Positions 51,418 through 60,441 of a stretch of 64,000 nt of DNA are shown here, in pieces (within the stretch, counting starts at the first letter, position 1; every line of letters begins with the position of its first letter). The stretch is from the NCBI GenBank assembly GCA_044344255.1, contig JBIJDH010000024.1, forward strand, positions 1 to 64,000. The letters run 5' to 3'. The translations under genes were made by a program, and so were the position numbers. The stretch is from Myxococcota bacterium. Its GTDB lineage: Bacteria; Myxococcota_A; UBA796; UBA2385. The notes under the pieces were generated by a model. It saw only the letters and a program-made list of their open reading frames with translations, was not told the DNA's origin and ran no database searches.

Positions 51418-52377
51418 TCACCGGTCTTTCGGGACCACCCGCACCGCCGAGCCCGCCTTCCCGATCTTCCTCAGGTTCTTCGCCGGCCCCTTCCCGATCG
51501 GATAGAGTGACGGCCCCACCGGCTCGACGACCACGAAGGTCTCTCCCTTGCCGCTCTTCTTCGTGGCCTGAAAGGTGGCGTCTCCCTTGGCGGGCTTGAT
51601 GCCCACGCCGGCGAAGGCGTGGCCGGGCAGATAGACCACCGCGGCGGGGAGCTTCGGCAGCTCGGCCCGCAGGAGAGCCAGGAAGAGCACGACCTTGGAG
51701 TCACAGTCGGCGCGGTTGCGGGAGAGGAGGGCCAGCGGGCGGCGATAGCCGGGGTCGTCGCCGTTTCGTTTGGCGACCTCGTAGGGGATGCTCTGGATGA
51801 AAGAGAGGACCCGCTCGACATAACGTCGCTCGCCGTTGACCCCCTCTCGCAGGGCCTCGGCCAGCGGCCGCACGGCGTCGGTGTACTCGACGACGAGGCG
51901 GGCGTGGTCATAGGACAGCAGGGTGGGGGAGAGCCAGAAGAAGTCATTCTTCTCGATGAACCGATTGAGCGCCTCTCGCTGGACCTCCTGGGCCCCGGCC
52001 AGGGCGCGCTGGATCACCTTCTTGTTGGGGCCGGTGGCGCGGAGGGAGAGGCCGCCTTCCCCATCCTCGCTCACCTTGAGCACGACGCCGTCGTTGAGCG
52101 ATCGTGCATAGTCACGGATCGCCTCCTCAACGGCGTTGTTGGCTCTCTTCTTCGGGAAGCCGGTGGTCTTCTTGAGGTCGGCCTCCACCTCGTCTGTGGG
52201 GAGGGAGAAGTCGACCTTGTGCGCCTTGTGGTCACCGTCCTTCCAGCCCACCTTGAATTCGGTCTTTCGCCCGCCCTCGTCCTTGTTGAATTGGGTCTGC
52301 TCCCCGTGGGCGGCGGCCGACAGGAAGAGCCAGAGCAGGAGGCCCGACGAGAGGCAAGCCCGCAGCAGGGGCCTCAT
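51418..52377 (-). CDS. Secreted transglutaminase-like (Cys-His-acid) protein
   Basis: Signal peptide. FIQSIPY, DCDSK, PGHAFAG and VEPVG are consistent with a transglutaminase-like triad. Confidence 0.65.
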   Translation of the reverse strand: MRPLLRACLSSGLLLWLFLSAAAHGEQTQFNKDEGGRKTEFKVGWKDGDHKAHKVDFSLPTDEVEADLKKTTGFPKKRANNAVEEAIRDYARSLNDGVVLKVSEDGEGGLSLRATGPNKKVIQRALAGAQEVQREALNRFIEKNDFFWLSPTLLSYDHARLVVEYTDAVRPLAEALREGVNGERRYVERVLSFIQSIPYEVAKRNGDDPGYRRPLALLSRNRADCDSKVVLFLALLRAELPKLPAAVVYLPGHAFAGVGIKPAKGDATFQATKKSGKGETFVVVEPVGPSLYPIGKGPAKNLRKIGKAGSAVRVVPKDR

Positions 52378-53201
52378 GCGGCCGCCCAGGGCGCTTCGGC
52401 GAGCCCGTCGAGCCTCCAGGGCTCGGCGAAGAGGGCGCGCACGGTCTTGGCGAGCACGCCGCCCTGAGCGCCGTCGAGGTAGCGGTGGTCTATGGTCGCG
52501 GTGATGATGACCTCCGACCGCGCGACCACCGCCCCGTCCACGATGGCGGGCTGCTCGGTGACCGCGCCGATGAGCACGAGCAGGGGCACGTGGGCCCAGG
52601 GGGTGTGGGGCGCGAAGCCCTCGTCGAGGCCGAACATGCCCACGCTCGTGATGATGCAGCTCCCGAAGGGGAATTGTTCGAGGCCGAGGGCCGGCACCGA
52701 CAAGCCCGCGCAGGCGGTGAGCCAGCCGCTCAGGCGCACGAGCGGGCGGATGAGCCAGGTCGGCAAGAGCTTGAGCGGGCCCTGGCTCTTCTGGAAGGCG
52801 GCGTCCTGGCCCTTTTGGAGGCGCTGGGCCCCCTCCCGGAGCTCGCGAGCGAGGGCGCCCGTGCCCTTCTTGTCCACGTCCTCCACCTTGAACTTGGCGA
52901 GGTTGCCGCCCTCCTCGATGCTGACGAGGAAGGCCACCGCCACACGATCGTGGGGGATGTACCGCCCAAGGAAGATGCGACCGTTGAGGCTCGGGGTCTG
53001 GGCGAGCGCGAGGCCCACCGCGCGGCCGACGATGTGGGTCATCGTCACCTTCTCGCCAGTGGTGGCCCGGAGGTGGTCGATGTACCGGAGCACGTTCGTG
53101 CAGTCGAGGCGCAGCTTCCCGTAGATGTTGCCCTCCGAGGGGGCCGTCCAGGAGGCGATAGCGAGCTTGCGGCGGGTGGTCATGGCGTTCATGCCGGACA
53201 T
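52374..53201 (-). CDS. Stand-alone 2-oxoacid dehydrogenase E2-type acyltransferase catalytic domain
   Basis: ITSVGMFG and TIDHRYLDGA (DHRxxDG). No lipoyl domain. Confidence 0.85.
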   Translation of the reverse strand: MSGMNAMTTRRKLAIASWTAPSEGNIYGKLRLDCTNVLRYIDHLRATTGEKVTMTHIVGRAVGLALAQTPSLNGRIFLGRYIPHDRVAVAFLVSIEEGGNLAKFKVEDVDKKGTGALARELREGAQRLQKGQDAAFQKSQGPLKLLPTWLIRPLVRLSGWLTACAGLSVPALGLEQFPFGSCIITSVGMFGLDEGFAPHTPWAHVPLLVLIGAVTEQPAIVDGAVVARSEVIITATIDHRYLDGAQGGVLAKTVRALFAEPWRLDGLAEAPWAAA

Positions 53202-53257: not shown

Positions 53258-54231
<974 letters not shown>

Positions 54232-54235
<4 letters not shown>

Positions 54236-55557
54236 CACGTCCCTGGGCGGGGATCCCGACGGACCGCGCGATCTGGCTGTGGGCGGCGGTCAGCCTCGTC
54301 GCGGTCTTCGGCTTCGTGACCCCCGCCCTCGGCCTCGTCGCGCTCGGCCTCGATGTCATCGTGCTGATCGCGGTCCTCATCGATCTGCGACGCGCCGGAC
54401 AGACGGCCCTGCAGCTCGAGCGCCTGCTCCCCCCCGTGGCCCACCAGGGCGAGCCGATGGAGGTGGTGCTGCTCATCGACAACCCGAATGACCACCCCCT
54501 CGGCCTGCGCATCCGGGAGGTGCTCTCCCCCGCCCTGTCGGCCGAGCCGGTGGCCCTCGAGCTCGAGCTTCCGGCCCGCTCTCGGGCCCGCCTGCCCTAT
54601 TCGGTCCGCCCCCTCCGCCGCGGGCGCAGCGTCGCCGCCCCGCTGGCCCTGCGGGTGCGAGGCCCCCTCGGCCTCGCCTGGGCCGACCGCGCCCTCCTCC
54701 CCGACCAGTCCATTCGGGTCTATCCGCGTGCGCACCTCGAGGGACAGGCCGGCCTCGTCGTGCGACAGGCGCTGCGCCAGCGGGCCGGCGCCAACCCCCG
54801 AGAGCGGCGCGGCCTCTCGACCGAGCTCTATGCCCTCCGGGAGTACCAGAACGGCGACCCCATGCGCTCGATCCACTGGCGAGCGAGCGCCCGCCGCGGG
54901 ATGCCGGTCACCCGAGAGACCTGCTGGGAGCAGCACCAGCACATCGTCATCCTGCTCGACTGCGGCCGGCCGATGTCCTCGCTCGCCGACGACCTCAACA
55001 AGCTCGACCACGCCCTCGCCGCCGTCCTCGCCCTGATGCGGGTGACGCTCTCCCAGAACGACCACGCCACCCTCGTGCTCTTCAGCCAGGACGTGCGCCG
55101 GGTGGTGACCGTCGACCGCCGCACGGCCTCCTTCCACACCGTCTTCGAGGCGGTCCACGACCTCGAGGCCGACCAGGACGAGCCCGACTACACCGCCGCC
55201 GTGGCCTGGTGCGCCCGCAAGGTGCCCCGCCGCTCCCTCGTGCTCGTCGTCACCTCGGTGCTCGACGCGCTCGGCGCCGAGCGGCTCCAGGGCGCCCTCA
55301 AGGGCCTCGCCGCCCGACACCGGCCCCTGCTCGTCAACCTCGAGGACCCCGGCCTGATGGCCCACGCCCGCTCCATCCCCGAGGAGCCCCTCGAGGCCTA
55401 CGCCAAGACCTCGGCGATGGCGATGCTGGCCCGCATCAGCGGGCTGACCCGGGCCCTGCGCGAGCAGGGGGTAGACGTGGTCTCCATGCCCGCCTCGGAG
55501 CTGGCGATCGGGATGATTGACCGATACCTCGCTTTCAAGGCGCGGCGGGGGATGTAG
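54232..55557 (+). CDS. DUF58-domain protein
   Basis: TTGA overlap with moxR, two N-terminal TMs, [28 protein letters not shown]. Confidence 0.9.
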
Positions 55558-55576
55558 GGTGCGAAATACCTCATGA

Positions 55577-55624
55577 TTGAGTTAACTCGGACTTGAGTTA
55601 ACTCGAACCTGAGTTAACTCAGCG
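55577..55624. repeat. Three GAGTTAACTC palindromes at 16-bp period
   Basis: Cores at 55579, 55595 and 55611. Units TTGAGTTAACTCGGAC / TTGAGTTAACTCGAAC / CTGAGTTAACTCAG. Confidence 0.92.
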
Positions 55625-55682
55625 TTGAGCCAACGCGGGGCATCGCATGGCCGCCCGTCGAGGTGCTGATTAGGTGCGGTCG

Positions 55683-57005
55683 ATGAGCCCTGTCGAAAAG
55701 GACCATCTCCTCAAGACCTTCTACCAGGCCATGGAAGATCGCCCGCTCGAGCCGGACGACAAGATGCACGTCGACCTGTCCCGCGAGGAGCTGCGGGGGG
55801 CCGATCCGGTCGCCAGCTTGGAGACCACCATTCGTTGGGCCCTCCAGGGCAGCGCCCAGTTGATGAGCGGCTTTCGGGGCACGGGCAAGAGCACGGAGCT
55901 GCGGCGACTGAAGCGGCGCCTCCAGGACGGTGAAGGCGACTTCGTCGTGCTGCTCTGCGACATGGACGACTACGTCAACATGACCACCCCGCTCGACGTG
56001 AGCGACCTGCTGCTCACCATGGCGGGAGCGGTGGGCGAGGGGCTCGCAGCGGTCAACAAGAAGCTGGCCGGGGAGGGCTACTACGGCCGCTTCCTCGGCT
56101 TCCTCCAGTCCCTGCGCATCGATCCGGAGCTGAGGGCCAGCCTCCCCCTCTCGCCGGTCGAGCTCAAGCTCAGCCTCCGGCATGACCCGACCCTGCGGGA
56201 GCGCATCCAGAAGCAGCTCAGCGGCCACGTCGCCGCCCTTGTGCAAGACGTACGCGCCTGGTTCGCCGAGCGGCTCCTTGCCTTGCGGGCGGAGCGGGGC
56301 GAGGGCACCCAGCTCGTGGTGCTCTTTGACTCGATGGAGAAGATCCGGGGGACCTCGATCAACGAGGCCGAGGTCACCGCCTCGCTGGAGACGGTCTTCG
56401 CCGGCCATGCGGCGCGCATCGTCATCCCGGAGGTGCACCTCGTCTTCACGGTGCCCCCCTGGCTCAAGGTGAAGGTGCCCGCGCTGCGCAGCCTCTACCA
56501 GAACTTCGAGATGCTCCCCTGCGTCAAGGTGAAGACCCGCGACGGGGCGGTTCATCCCGCGGGGGTGCAGGCCCTCGTGGAGCTCGTGGAGAAGCGGGCC
56601 GCCTGGCGGCCCGTGATCTCCGATCGGGAGCTCCTGGAGCGGCTCATCCTCTGCTCGGGCGGCTACCTCCGCGACCTCCTCCACCTGCTGCAGTCCGTGG
56701 CCCGCCTGAGCGCCCAGCAGAGCCTGCCCGTCGCCCGGCCGGTGGTGGAGGCGGCCATCAGCAAGATTCAGAACGGCTACCTACCGCTGACCCACGAGGA
56801 CGCGCGTTGGCTCGCCGCCATCCATGCGCACCGCTCGACGGAGCTCGAGGGCCTCGACGGCCTGGGCCTGCTCGCGCGGCTCTTCGACAACCTGCTCGTG
56901 CTCACCTATCGAAACGGGGCCGAGTGGTACGACGTTCACCCGTTGGTGCAAGAGCAGGCGATCGAGATGGCCGGGCGGAAGAGCGCGCCTGCCGCCGCCG
57001 GTTGA
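55683..57005 (+). CDS. P-loop ATPase (AAA+/STAND-like) of unknown function
   Basis: Walker A GFRGTGKST, Walker B VVLFDSMEK, SGGYLRDL, C-terminal YRNGAEWYDVHPL. Alternative GTG start at 55674. Confidence 0.85.
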   Translation: MSPVEKDHLLKTFYQAMEDRPLEPDDKMHVDLSREELRGADPVASLETTIRWALQGSAQLMSGFRGTGKSTELRRLKRRLQDGEGDFVVLLCDMDDYVNMTTPLDVSDLLLTMAGAVGEGLAAVNKKLAGEGYYGRFLGFLQSLRIDPELRASLPLSPVELKLSLRHDPTLRERIQKQLSGHVAALVQDVRAWFAERLLALRAERGEGTQLVVLFDSMEKIRGTSINEAEVTASLETVFAGHAARIVIPEVHLVFTVPPWLKVKVPALRSLYQNFEMLPCVKVKTRDGAVHPAGVQALVELVEKRAAWRPVISDRELLERLILCSGGYLRDLLHLLQSVARLSAQQSLPVARPVVEAAISKIQNGYLPLTHEDARWLAAIHAHRSTELEGLDGLGLLARLFDNLLVLTYRNGAEWYDVHPLVQEQAIEMAGRKSAPAAAG

Positions 57006-59815
57006 TCGGCGCATTGACCTCTCTCTCTCCCAGCGGTGAGTCGGCCTGGCAGGAGCTGGAGGCGCACCTCGCCTGGTCGGATCGGCCCTGGATCGGCTGG
57101 ATCTTCACCGGCCATACGGCCTCGGCCCTGGAGCTCCTGCGCCGAATGCAGGCGGCCTGGTCTGACCGCGACAACGAGGTGCGGACGCCCGACCAGCCCG
57201 GCGAGCTGCTCGCGGCCATCCCATGGCTCGTAGACGAGCGGGAAGGTCGGAGCGGCTTCGCCGCGCTGCACGTGCGCCACCTCGGCGCCGCCTGGGCCCA
57301 GGCCTGGGACGCGCTGCACCTTCGGCTGAACTCGCTTCGGGAGCGCGTTCGCCGCGAAGGGAGGGGCGGCGTCCTCCTCATCGCCCACCCCGACTGGAAG
57401 CCGCGGGTGCGCGACGCGGCGCCCGACCTCTACAGCGTCGCGAGCTTCGTCTTCGACGTCGAGCCGCCTCCCTCCGAGGAGGCCCCGGCGCTCATCGGGC
57501 TCGGCCCGCTCTCTGGCTGGGCCTTCGTGCCCTTCCCGCGGCCGGGCTCGGAGGACCAGATCCGACTGCTGGAGCAGGACATCGCCCGCCAACCCGAGCG
57601 CGCCGCGGAGCTGGCCCTCTCTCTCGGCCGGGCCCTCTTCGCCGCCGGCCGCTTCTCAGAGGCCCTGGCCCGGGTGGAGGCCATGGAAGAGCCGGCCGCC
57701 TTGGAGCTCCGCGGCCTCGCGCTGGCGCACCAGGGTCAGCGCGACCTGGCCTTGTCGGCATTGCGGGCTGCCTTCGCGGTGGAGCCTGGGGCTCTGTCTG
57801 ACGAAGGGGCCTCGACCCTCCACAACCTCCTCTGCGCCGACGCCTCCCCCCTCGAGGCTGTGGAGATGGCGGAGCGGTGGGTCAAGGCCCTTCAAGCGCG
57901 CCTGCAGCGACCAGGGGCCCTCCTCGAGGATCAGGTGGCCCTCGCCCAGGCTCGCCTGGCCCTCTCACGGGCACAGCTCCTCCAGAACGCGCCTCAGCTC
58001 GCCGTCGACGCCGCCCGAGCCGCCGAGGCGGACCTCGAGGCGCTGCATCGCCTGAACCCCCACCTCCACACCCTGCGCGGGCACCTCGGCGCCGCCCGGC
58101 TCCGGCTCGCCGAAGCCTCGAACCACCTCGGGGACACCGTCCGGGCGCTGGCCACCGCGGAGCAGGGCCTGGAGGAGCTCCGCGAGGCCGGCGCGGACTG
58201 GACGGCCGTCGAGCTGGCCTGTGGTTGTCTGGTCATCCAGCTCCTCCTCGGGATGGGTGAGGCGCAGGCCGCGAGGGCACAGGGCGACAAGGTCCTCGCG
58301 CGGCTGCTGGCCCTCGACGGGGAGCCGGCGCCGCCTCGCGGGCTCAGCCCGGCCAGCATCGGCGCCCTGTTTGGACAGATCGCCGCAGCGCAGAGCGCCG
58401 CCGGCGATCTTCGACAGGCACTGAACTTGTACGCACATGCTCAGGCACAGTTTGTCACGCGGCCTCTCCAACGACCTGAACAGGCCTCCTACGCCGCCTT
58501 GCTGGCGTCCTTCGCCTCCGCGCTCTTCGACGCTGGCGATCGAGAGCAGGCCATGGCCCTGGCGGAGGAGTCCCTTCGACACTTCCAGGCTCTTCCGGCG
58601 GAGGAGGTGGATAAACGAGCGGCCCGACGTGCCCAAGGGCGCTGTCTCCTCCAGCTCTCGAGAATGAAGATTGAGTTGGGGGATGCGCCCCTGGGAAAAG
58701 AGCTGTCCAAGATAGGAGTTCGGCTCTTTGACCAGCTCCGTCGAGACGGCGCTTCGGTACAGACGGAGCTCCTCGTGGCGATGGCGAGGCTCGCCCATGC
58801 CGAGCGGGAGGTTGGGAACGCGCCTGCGGCGCTCCGCCTGGCCGACCAGATCCTCTCCGAGATGGGTCCGCTCGCCAGGGACAACCCCGCTGAGCTGGCG
58901 CTCCACGCCGACATCCTCACCACACGGGCGAACGCGCTGCTTGACCTGAGAGGGCCCTCCGCCGCGTTGCCGGCTCTCGAGGCGGCGAGAGCAGCCTGGG
59001 TTTCCGTGGTGGGAAGCGGGCGAGGCCGTGCGGAGTGGCTCTTCAGCCTGTCCCAGGTAGAGGTTCAGCTCTCCTCCGCCCAGTCATCCTCGGGGCGGTC
59101 GGAGGAAGCCATTCGGCTCGCAGAGATGGCCCTGCTGCATTCTCACGAGCTGAAGGCTCCCTACCCGTCCCGCGCTCACGGCCGTTCGTTGGCCATTACA
59201 CGGTCGCACATTGCTCTGGGTGTCGTCCAGCTCGAGCTCGGGAGAGTTGCCGCGGCGCGAAAGGCCCTCGAAGACGCGCTCCTGCAGAATCGCGAGATGG
59301 AGCAAGCGGAGGGTGAGACACCGCACGGCCTCCACCAGCGCAGCAACATCCTCCGACTCCTGGGCCGAGCCGAGGCGAAGGGCGGAGACACCCTGCAGGC
59401 GCGGCGCCATCTGCAGGAGGCAGCCGACACTTCGAGGTACCTGATCCTTCGTTATCCCGGCTTCCTAGCGGGGCGACGGGAGCTCGATATGGCTCTCATG
59501 GAGCAAGCAGCCATTTTGCAAGGAGCAGGAGACACCGCTGGCGAGAGGACGATCCTCCGAGAGGCCACGGAGGTCCTGAGGGCGGACCCTACCCCAGAAG
59601 GCAAGCGCAGCCTCGCTCAGGTGCTGCACCGGCGAATCAGCCTCGAGGTCGCCGCCCAGGAGCCGGGCCTTCGTCAGGAGGCGCTCTCTCTGCTGAATGA
59701 CCTGGAGCGCCAGGGACTCAGCCGACCCGAAGATCGAGACCTCCATCGCACGCTGTCGGAGCCGCCCGCCCCCGGCCCGGGGAGGGCCGCCCGACGGGCT
59801 CGTCGCAGCGGCTGA
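57002..59815 (+). CDS. TPR-like helical repeat protein with an N-terminal alpha/beta domain (possibly an inactive NTPase fold)
   Basis: TTG at 57002 overlaps the ATPase stop (TTGA). N-domain RLNSLRE..VLL..APDLYS, then many A/L/G helical TPR-like units. Confidence 0.8.
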   Translation: MIGALTSLSPSGESAWQELEAHLAWSDRPWIGWIFTGHTASALELLRRMQAAWSDRDNEVRTPDQPGELLAAIPWLVDEREGRSGFAALHVRHLGAAWAQAWDALHLRLNSLRERVRREGRGGVLLIAHPDWKPRVRDAAPDLYSVASFVFDVEPPPSEEAPALIGLGPLSGWAFVPFPRPGSEDQIRLLEQDIARQPERAAELALSLGRALFAAGRFSEALARVEAMEEPAALELRGLALAHQGQRDLALSALRAAFAVEPGALSDEGASTLHNLLCADASPLEAVEMAERWVKALQARLQRPGALLEDQVALAQARLALSRAQLLQNAPQLAVDAARAAEADLEALHRLNPHLHTLRGHLGAARLRLAEASNHLGDTVRALATAEQGLEELREAGADWTAVELACGCLVIQLLLGMGEAQAARAQGDKVLARLLALDGEPAPPRGLSPASIGALFGQIAAAQSAAGDLRQALNLYAHAQAQFVTRPLQRPEQASYAALLASFASALFDAGDREQAMALAEESLRHFQALPAEEVDKRAARRAQGRCLLQLSRMKIELGDAPLGKELSKIGVRLFDQLRRDGASVQTELLVAMARLAHAEREVGNAPAALRLADQILSEMGPLARDNPAELALHADILTTRANALLDLRGPSAALPALEAARAAWVSVVGSGRGRAEWLFSLSQVEVQLSSAQSSSGRSEEAIRLAEMALLHSHELKAPYPSRAHGRSLAITRSHIALGVVQLELGRVAAARKALEDALLQNREMEQAEGETPHGLHQRSNILRLLGRAEAKGGDTLQARRHLQEAADTSRYLILRYPGFLAGRRELDMALMEQAAILQGAGDTAGERTILREATEVLRADPTPEGKRSLAQVLHRRISLEVAAQEPGLRQEALSLLNDLERQGLSRPEDRDLHRTLSEPPAPGPGRAARRARRSG

Positions 59816-60323: not shown

Positions 60324-60351
60324 GCTCTCCTCCAGAGATCCCGACCCCAGA

Positions 60352-60441
60352 GATCTTGACCCGCAGGGATCTTGACCCGCAGGGATCTTGACCCGCAGGG
60401 ATCTTGACCCGCAGGGATCTTGACCCGCAGGGATCTTGACC
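60352..60441. repeat. 16-bp perfect tandem repeat GATCTTGACCCGCAGG (5 full copies + 1 partial), intergenic
   Basis: Units start at 60352, 60368, 60384, 60400, 60416 and 60432. A degenerate copy precedes them at 60337. Confidence 0.95.

Follow-up and report, generated by a model that had tools for sequence, protein, structure and literature searches.

In heteromeric AAA+ loaders (clamp-loader delta/delta', Orc2/3) and in Hda-DnaA, an inactive or accessory AAA+ subunit completes the ATP site of its neighbor. In bacteriophage exclusion (BREX) systems, BrxB docks on the ATP pocket of BrxC, where it donates an arginine and stimulates hydrolysis, and it also forms a bridge to PglZ (PMC13326643; PMC12839542; PDB 9zll). 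The nSTAND2 operon, a predicted counter-invader system, encodes an active STAND protein and then an inactive STAND protein with TPRs and a variable C-terminus, for which a hetero-multimer has been proposed (Kaur et al. 2021, PMC8195603). Here we describe a two-gene locus in a 64,000-nucleotide stretch of a Myxococcota bacterium genome (assembly GCA_044344255.1, contig JBIJDH010000024.1, positions 1 to 64,000; the whole stretch is hereafter the window). An ATPase gene is followed by a gene whose N-terminal domain, here called the tag, precedes a cargo that differs between relatives (Table 1). The pair is real, widespread and unnamed, and a portable tag with swappable cargo sets it apart from other active-plus-inactive AAA+/STAND systems. 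On balance, it probably works as a two-gene conflict (counter-invader) switch in which the ATPase stays constant and the tagged cargo is swappable.

The initial annotation of this DNA described an ATPase with intact Walker A and B and a C-terminal Y-x-N-x3-W-x-DVHP motif, and all of these are present. With residues counted from GTG 55674 (database records use the ATG start, and the protein cluster has n=10 members), Walker A (G66-F-R-G-T-G-K72-S-T, GFRGTGKST) and Walker B (VVLFD219-S-M-E222) are complete, the sensor-2 arginine lies in G329-G-Y-L-R333, and the C-terminal motif YRNGAEWYDVHP is kept (Y412-R-N-G-A-E-W418-Y-D-V-H-P423). The structural model, built on a 44-row alignment with a predicted local distance difference test score (pLDDT) of 93.5, comprises an AAA+ core, a helical insert (residues ~105-208), a lid and a C-terminal winged-helix-like domain; the protein has no transmembrane segment, the helical insert included. 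The top structural matches are tied: Drosophila Cdc6 (7jgr_G; Z 15.3, root-mean-square deviation [rmsd] 3.4 over 244 aa), TnsC (Z 14.9), Paby2304 (Z 14.8) and archaeal Orc2 (Z 14.3), with NLRs, MuB and BrxC lower at Z 11-13 (BrxC: Z 11.6, rmsd 6.5, 287 aa). As modeled, this is an intact Orc1/Cdc6/TnsC/STAND-like AAA+ protein with lid and winged helix.

Known families do not claim it. Pfam, PADLOC and NCBIfam scans of both window proteins left every family below cut-off, the ATPase reaching only AAA_16 (E 0.0015), AAA_22 (E 0.0036) and PDC-S01 (E 0.08), and PADLOC gave 0 matches for three further ATPase homologs. PF07693 (KAP NTPases) has no match in the window ATPase; it matches one cyanobacterial homolog (26.2 bits, cut-off 20) and, in most of the nearest Atlas clusters, 11-18% of the members, with a maximum of 95% in one cluster. 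The best hit of a sequence search of the PDB was at E 0.029, nothing significant, and 50,697 phage records gave no match. The nearest named homologs come mostly from Myxococcota or Deltaproteobacteria assemblies, which makes a myxobacterium the probable host.

The partner gene overlaps the end of the ATPase gene by TTGA, as the initial annotation had read, and its product is close to the ~940 aa given there. Its TTG start is common to the 7 full-length members of a cluster of 8, and in 40/79 paired loci the nearest in-frame start gives the same overlap of 4 nt. The partner's LNxxRE..APDxxS signature is present as LNSLRE and APDLYS, with no Walker A, and the suspected NTPase fold lacking that motif is borne out by structure prediction: the tag (75-row alignment, pLDDT 88.7) is modeled as an AAA+/P-loop core of five strands with no lid and no Walker A/B, ending at strand 5 (residue 152) and having only helices between strands 4 and 5. 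Its best fold matches all lie within ~1 Z of each other and are tied: Avs5 (9nc9_D; Z 11.6, rmsd 2.9 over 128 aa), NSF D2, p97 and RFC (Z 10.8), clamp loaders and Cdc6. Clamp-loader delta/delta', Orc2/3 and Hda are also among the matches; BrxB is not among the listed matches of either tag fold search, which excludes nothing. On the model, the fold class (AAA+/P-loop core) is secure and the nearest subfamily is not. Descent of the tag from its own ATPase as a paralog is not claimed, hhalign giving E 0.012 and a probability of 3.7% with near alignments and E 0.54 with broad ones.

Behind the tag, the TPR-like array proposed by the initial annotation carries a real signal, although a weak one (TPR_12, E 4.5e-6, 27.2 bits against a cut-off of 30.1). 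The array is divergent, its best match among other partners being ~30% over 155-170 aa, and the G+C content at third codon positions (GC3) of the partner falls from 0.87-0.92 to 0.72-0.83 past codon ~400; the two together fit recent swapping or drift alike.

Co-folding of ATPase and tag scored 0.80 against 0.00 for the best control, with runs agreeing in at least 89% of contacts and a partner pLDDT of at least 79; the mark applied is met by 116/157 solved and 2/215 mismatched pairs, a rough calibration since the analysis's own alignments were used. On the ATPase the predicted contacts are the P-loop (68-69), the loop past Walker B (223-231), R333 and the lid; on the tag they are the first helix, helix 3 (110-111, 114) and the APDL region (141-146). 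The tag is thereby predicted to dock head-to-tail on the ATPase nucleotide pocket. Across 157 pairs the tag keeps R113 in 157, N110 in 155, D142 in 154 and R147 in 125 (it is absent in 32), and the ATPase keeps K72 in 152, D219 in 154 and R333 in 152, with the D219-S-h-E/D222 pattern in 154-155; these counts are not fully independent, the tags having been found partly by a profile that holds these motifs. Candidate finger residues are seen in the tag, in the invariant R113 and the frequent R147, and not in the ATPase, where no arginine column just before strand 5 exceeds 41%. R113 is not among the confidently touching residues of the predicted complex.

The genes are coupled and travel together. 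The best 80 of 447 loci from a GTDB scan were retained; the tag gene lies directly downstream of the ATPase in 77 and behind a frameshift in a 78th (L051), and the remaining two, both from Archangium (L056, L058), instead encode a fusion of the ATPase with an ABC ATPase. The conserved pairing that the initial annotation had anticipated is thus seen in 78/80 loci, a count independent of the tag profile. In a phylum-wide sample of 301 genomes, the ATPase is found in 37 and the tag in 36; 34 carry both. For 52 of the 72 tag matches the locus was fetched (the others being 4 own, 13 with an adjacent ATPase evident from coordinates and 3 weak), and the ATPase lies directly upstream of the tag in 51, the last holding a broken remnant. 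Seven loci chosen as ATPases with no tag match comprise three with a weak tag, one with a degenerate tag (by eye), one fusion and two with no partner. The tree of the tags matches that of the ATPases (r 0.77 for 154 loci, 3 near-identical ones having been dropped; best of 500 permutations 0.26), which shows joint inheritance and not co-adaptation, because kin share history. The pairing is near-obligate.

Presence of the pair is patchy (8/18 family genomes) and copy number can be high: the window genome carries four pairs (C54, C18, C25 and C75) and genome G168 nine, the highest count seen. The TPR arrays vary in length and sequence while the ATPases remain 33-50% identical. Plasmid copies occur in Acidobacteria and Cyanobacteria (9 records), with the tag confirmed in 4/4 of those fetched. 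One of them, on an Acaryochloris plasmid (L183:5749-14685), pairs the ATPase with an 1830-aa tag-repeat-WD40 protein; around it lie integrases, a NACHT gene and toxin-antitoxin genes (HicAB and RelE-type). The tag profile reaches 2,761 representatives at E 0.001, that is, at least 2,761 clusters at 50% identity.

What follows the tag differs from branch to branch. In the near clade, 74 GTDB partners (3 others are cut by contig ends) comprise 60 with TPRs, 12 with no match, 1 with a sigma-54 AAA domain and 1 with NACHT. Among the 52 phylum-wide loci, TPR cargo is found in 24 (18 at 1e-5, 6 weaker), 8 have no match, and in 20 the tag is followed by another NTPase or by a conflict module (14 at 1e-5, 6 weaker). 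Those at 1e-5 include NACHT, phosphoesterase+NACHT, NACHT+FGS, AAA_35, EAD5, FGS and kinase modules, and the weaker six include TIR+EAD1; no HEPN or GT4 match was found in the 74 + 52 partners. Cyanobacterial partners consist of tag, helical repeats and WD40. In 20 regions from close relatives, EAD-like+SAVED cargo occurs in 3 and phosphoesterase+NACHT in 2, the EAD label being assigned by eye. In L100, L101 and L113 the tag is followed by an EAD-like helical domain and then SAVED, and the called neighbors include no cyclase. The window genome itself encodes a tag-TIR-NACHT-FGS protein (L002, G000:C25:1041-4970) and a tag-NACHT protein (L108, G000:C75). Along the ATPase tree, the cargo switches class at least 13 times, against at least 27 times when shuffled, with class labels assigned in this analysis.

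Three ATPases with no tag gene are instead fused to defense-type ABC ATPases. In L176:4369-7943 (-), the ATPase is fused to Septu PtuA (E 2e-47) and followed by a PtuB HNH gene (E 9e-32). In Archangium, L058:4118-7344 joins it to an AAA_21 ABC ATPase resembling HEC-01A (E 5e-50), followed by an overlapping 244-aa open reading frame with no assigned function, and L056:7992-10061 is a second fusion to an AAA_21 ABC ATPase. Separately, L144:2438-3811 fuses the tag to what by eye looks like a degenerate ATPase copy, with an eroded P-loop, an SGG lid motif and a terminal HPL. It is mainly this variation of cargo with immune-type modules, along with the ATPase fusions to PtuA and a HEC-01A-like ABC ATPase, that suggests a role in conflict. 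The variable cargo also argues that the tag is a docking tag and not half of a split NLR. The initial annotation had proposed a switch divided between an active and an inactive NTPase; the pairing and the predicted docking agree with it, but the idea of one NLR cut in two does not hold, because in many relatives the tag fronts complete NACHT/STAND receptors and effectors.

Comparison with described systems sharpens this picture. Like BrxC-BrxB, the pair combines an Orc/Cdc6-clade ATPase bearing a winged helix with a lid-less inactive AAA+ core that, here by prediction, docks on the ATP pocket, may supply an arginine in trans and links the ATPase to a further protein. Unlike BREX, it has two genes only, with no methyltransferase, PglZ or other BREX gene; the ATPase falls far short of BrxC (1200-1300 aa), the dead domain is fused N-terminally to variable cargo as BrxB is not, and the tag model lacks the three-stranded beta cap past strand 4 of BREX types 1 and 3. 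No PglZ, PglX/methyltransferase or BrxA was found in the window, nor any BREX core gene among 125 immediate neighbors of the GTDB pairs, one of which is a kinase with a partial PglW match.

The gene order, active NTPase and then inactive NTPase, recalls nSTAND2. There, however, the inactive partner keeps its winged helix-turn-helix and ends in HEPN or GT4, whereas the window tag stops past strand 5, and both chains have an arginine finger, whereas the ATPase here shows no conserved arginine just ahead of strand 5 (PMC8195603). The profile PF20702 has no match at E 0.1 in the partner or in 75 N-domains and 0 matches in the window genome; in 351 genomes it yields 1 fragment (L186, E 1e-24), which matches neither the ATPase nor the tag profile, and 3 of 151 hits in the window's own phylum are weak, falling on intact archaeal-type ATPases. 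Two such weak matches, L084 and L085 (PDC-S27-like), indicate that the PF20702 cut-off admits non-members.

With Avs/bNACHT proteins the pair shares a STAND-like NTPase associated with TPR, WD40 or FGS sensors, many cargos here being such receptors, and an ATPase whose AAA+ core carries a helical domain, a winged helix and an acidic residue at Walker B +3; Avs/bNACHT proteins, by contrast, are single effector-NTPase-sensor chains, and here the ATPase has a gene of its own that encodes neither sensor nor effector (PMC13581612). The ATPase has no match above cut-off to PADLOC Avs or to Pfam NACHT, NB-ARC and nSTAND models. The principle of a constant NTPase with variable cargo and an inactive STAND domain is that of MoxR-vWA-iSTAND and EAD/EACC systems, and the cargo vocabulary (EAD1, EAD5, TIR, NACHT, FGS) is common to both (PMC7159879, PMC8195603). 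Neither MoxR nor vWA is conserved alongside this pair, the role of adaptor falls to a dead AAA+ domain whose binding is predicted to be heterotypic, and Pfam iSTAND has no match in the N-domains. AAA+ loaders and Hda-DnaA differ again in being housekeeping replication machines with no variable sensor cargo. The pair fails membership of BREX, nSTAND2, Avs/bNACHT and MoxR-vWA-iSTAND alike.

The initial annotation's view that the system is undescribed stands as far as the libraries and literature searched extend. Literature searches, with most subscription papers outside their reach, returned no description of the pair, and it is not described in the available parts of bioRxiv 10.64898/2026.10.19.760177 and PMC10907252. 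Six protein accessions from plasmid loci are absent from the supplements searched of PMC13581612 (tables MOESM1, 3 and 4, outside that search, may list the ATPase clade), and four accessions and a locus tag are absent from 13 supplements of PMC8195603.

For gating, trigger and output we infer the following sequence. Coupled translation would yield a complex with the tag on the ATP site of an ATPase unable to complete its own. Because the ATPase apparently has no conserved arginine finger, the tag (through N110/R113 and usually R147) may complete or gate that site in trans and cap the oligomer, in the manner of BrxB on BrxC. In the window, binding of an invader protein by the TPR array would change the tag-ATPase contact, and the ATPase would then turn over or oligomerise. 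Output would be the cargo's own enzyme where the cargo has one; at TPR-only loci, including the window, it might be the ATPase itself (binding DNA by its winged helix in the manner of Orc/TnsC) or a trans-acting effector, for which the tagged proteins of C25 and C75 are candidates. More tentatively, the tag could be a general portable plug: by completing the active site of a dedicated Orc1/Cdc6-like helper ATPase in trans, it would connect that ATPase to sensors and effectors of any kind, up to and including entire NLR-like receptors.

Several observations weigh against a conflict switch, or against parts of it. No effector domain was recognizable in library scans of the window partner or ATPase. 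Non-TPR cargo occurs in 5/89 loci of the window clade (at least 33% ATPase identity), and the ATPases L174 and L175 have no partner at all. The predicted interface is the usual AAA+ head-to-tail face, and the co-folding pass may partly reflect memory of solved AAA+ interfaces (ORC, BrxB-BrxC). The window tag has A147 and Y144 where relatives carry R and W; R147 is kept in the C18 pair of the same genome. Defense-island enrichment, put forward as a check by the initial annotation, is not seen for the window's TPR clade: at 1e-8 PADLOC matches 13/125 immediate neighbors of GTDB pairs, a figure with no control gene set, and ~3/125 are convincingly defense (a type III methyltransferase, PDC-M28C and mad2), the other matching neighbors being generic kinases, ABC transporters and ankyrins. 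The recurring neighbors are housekeeping genes in shared synteny, and flanks are stable in some lineages.

These last points bear most on the possibility that docking is as proposed but that the TPR-only branch, the window included, is a MalT/AfsR-type switch for non-defense signaling in development or stress, in bacteria with large genomes that are often multicellular. Housekeeping flanks are conserved in three groups of loci (L012/L016/L019/L022, L039/L048/L053 and L067/L068/L076/L078), the 60 TPR-bearing partners of the near clade have no effector, sigma-54 and kinase cargo exist, and defense and non-defense STAND clades are interspersed (PMC13581612). Patchy presence with many unlinked paralogs speaks against such a role, as do TPR arrays that vary while their ATPases stay conserved, TIR, SAVED, EAD and NACHT cargo in sister branches, and a partner with no DNA-binding output domain. 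We regard signaling as unlikely here, but it deserves to be taken seriously.

Rather less credible is a dedicated chaperone or brake, with the ATPase binding the tag to fold, assemble or restrain toxic or aggregation-prone cargo, as proposed for MoxR on vWA-fused effectors. MoxR-vWA systems follow the same scheme, a constant component with variable cargo (PMC7159879), translational coupling suits co-folding, and where a cargo is a complete receptor with its own NTPase and effector a second switch seems superfluous, as is the case for many. The Orc/Cdc6/STAND fold with its winged helix, however, is not that of MoxR or of a pore-loop unfoldase, and a tag predicted to sit on the ATP pocket resembles a ring subunit rather than a substrate.

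It is improbable, to a still greater degree, that the family is functional and the window copy decaying, its tag arginine finger lost and its repeats drifting. The near clade has R147 in 71/75 tags and W144 in 74/75, against R147A and W144Y here, and the sub-cut-off TPR score and lower GC3 of the 3' half fit decay, as do the sequence variants, which differ at 6-20/937 residues in the partner and, in 4/5 full-length variants, at 1-2/440 in the ATPase. Yet A147/Y144 are common to all 7 full-length cluster members, every one with an intact frame; N110, R113, D142 and every ATPase motif are kept; R147 is missing in 32/157 relatives too; and the complex passes with the window sequence first in the alignment. 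The idea that the pair is a mobile-element targeting module resembling TnsC, in which the partner would select the target, is already largely refuted and merits almost no credence, for although TnsC and MuB are among the top ATPase folds and some plasmid copies lie near integrases or insertion sequences, no TnsB or other transposase and no TniQ/TnsD was found in the window or among neighbor clusters recurring in at least 3/83 loci, the phage records hold no match, and the cargo types are not target selectors.

Table 1. Positions, in window coordinates, of the two genes, their parts and the adjacent upstream features
Feature	Position	Strand	Remarks
MoxR ATPase + DUF58/vWA pair	53258-55557		directly upstream of ATPase
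16-bp tandem palindrome array GAGTTAACTC	55577..55629	.	3 perfect copies + decayed fourth
Constant ATPase	55683..57005	+	440 aa from ATG; 443 aa from GTG 55674
TTGA stop/start overlap (translational coupling)	57002..57005	+	
Partner open reading frame	57002 (TTG)..59815	+	937 aa
Partner N-terminal inactive AAA+ core ("tag", residues 1-157)	57002..57472	+	fold model
Partner C-terminal divergent TPR-like helical repeat array (residues ~180-937)	57530..59815	+	

Two features upstream of the pair are incidental to it. The initial annotation had singled out the palindrome array just upstream, which is real: perfect copies of GAGTTAACTC stand at 55579, 55595 and 55611 with period 16, and nowhere else in the 8.18-Mb genome. 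The array does not belong to the conserved module, because such an array is present in 1/78 regions upstream of ATPase homologs and the genome holds 46 Tandem Repeats Finder arrays of period 16. A role as operator for the winged helix was set aside, the array not being kept in the 77 other upstream regions; a search for a sigma-70 promoter gave no match. A second 16-bp tandem array, GACCCGCAGGGATCTT (60343-60441, 6.2 copies), lies between divergent DUF4870 and M28 peptidase genes; it is unrelated in sequence to the first and is one of many short minisatellites in the genome.

The MoxR and DUF58 genes flank the pair upstream, and the DUF4870 and M28 peptidase genes flank it downstream. MoxR-DUF58 was rejected as a component of the system, since 3/3 orthologous pairs with visible downstream DNA have other genes there; no MoxR cluster is among the recurring neighbors. 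Farther upstream (51418-53201, -), a stand-alone 2-oxoacid dehydrogenase acyltransferase catalytic domain (275 aa) overlaps a secreted transglutaminase-like gene. An RNA run (7% of words) yields short contigs at depth 2-6 over parts of 55015-55990 and 56662-56902, for which DNA carry-over is possible, and no contigs over the partner, which counts neither for nor against expression.

The tag has no Pfam family, and it accounts for the unannotated N-termini of many NACHT, SAVED, TIR, WD40 and TPR proteins, which occur in myxobacteria, cyanobacteria and others. A conflict switch of this kind predicts that tagged receptors need their neighboring ATPase, a point relevant to the cloning of single STAND genes for phage assays. 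It would carry the BrxB-BrxC mechanism, which was not solved until 2026, over to a minimal unit of two genes whose cargo can be swapped, and K72 and R113 offer themselves as positions for point mutants. If the tag is indeed a general plug, bacteria would possess a counterpart of plant helper NLRs or NAIP-NLRC4 in the form of helper-sensor pairs, a single genome would encode several ATPase-tag pairs orthogonal to one another, and a large class of effector-less or N-terminally unexplained NACHT, TPR and WD40 proteins would find an explanation that can be put to the test.

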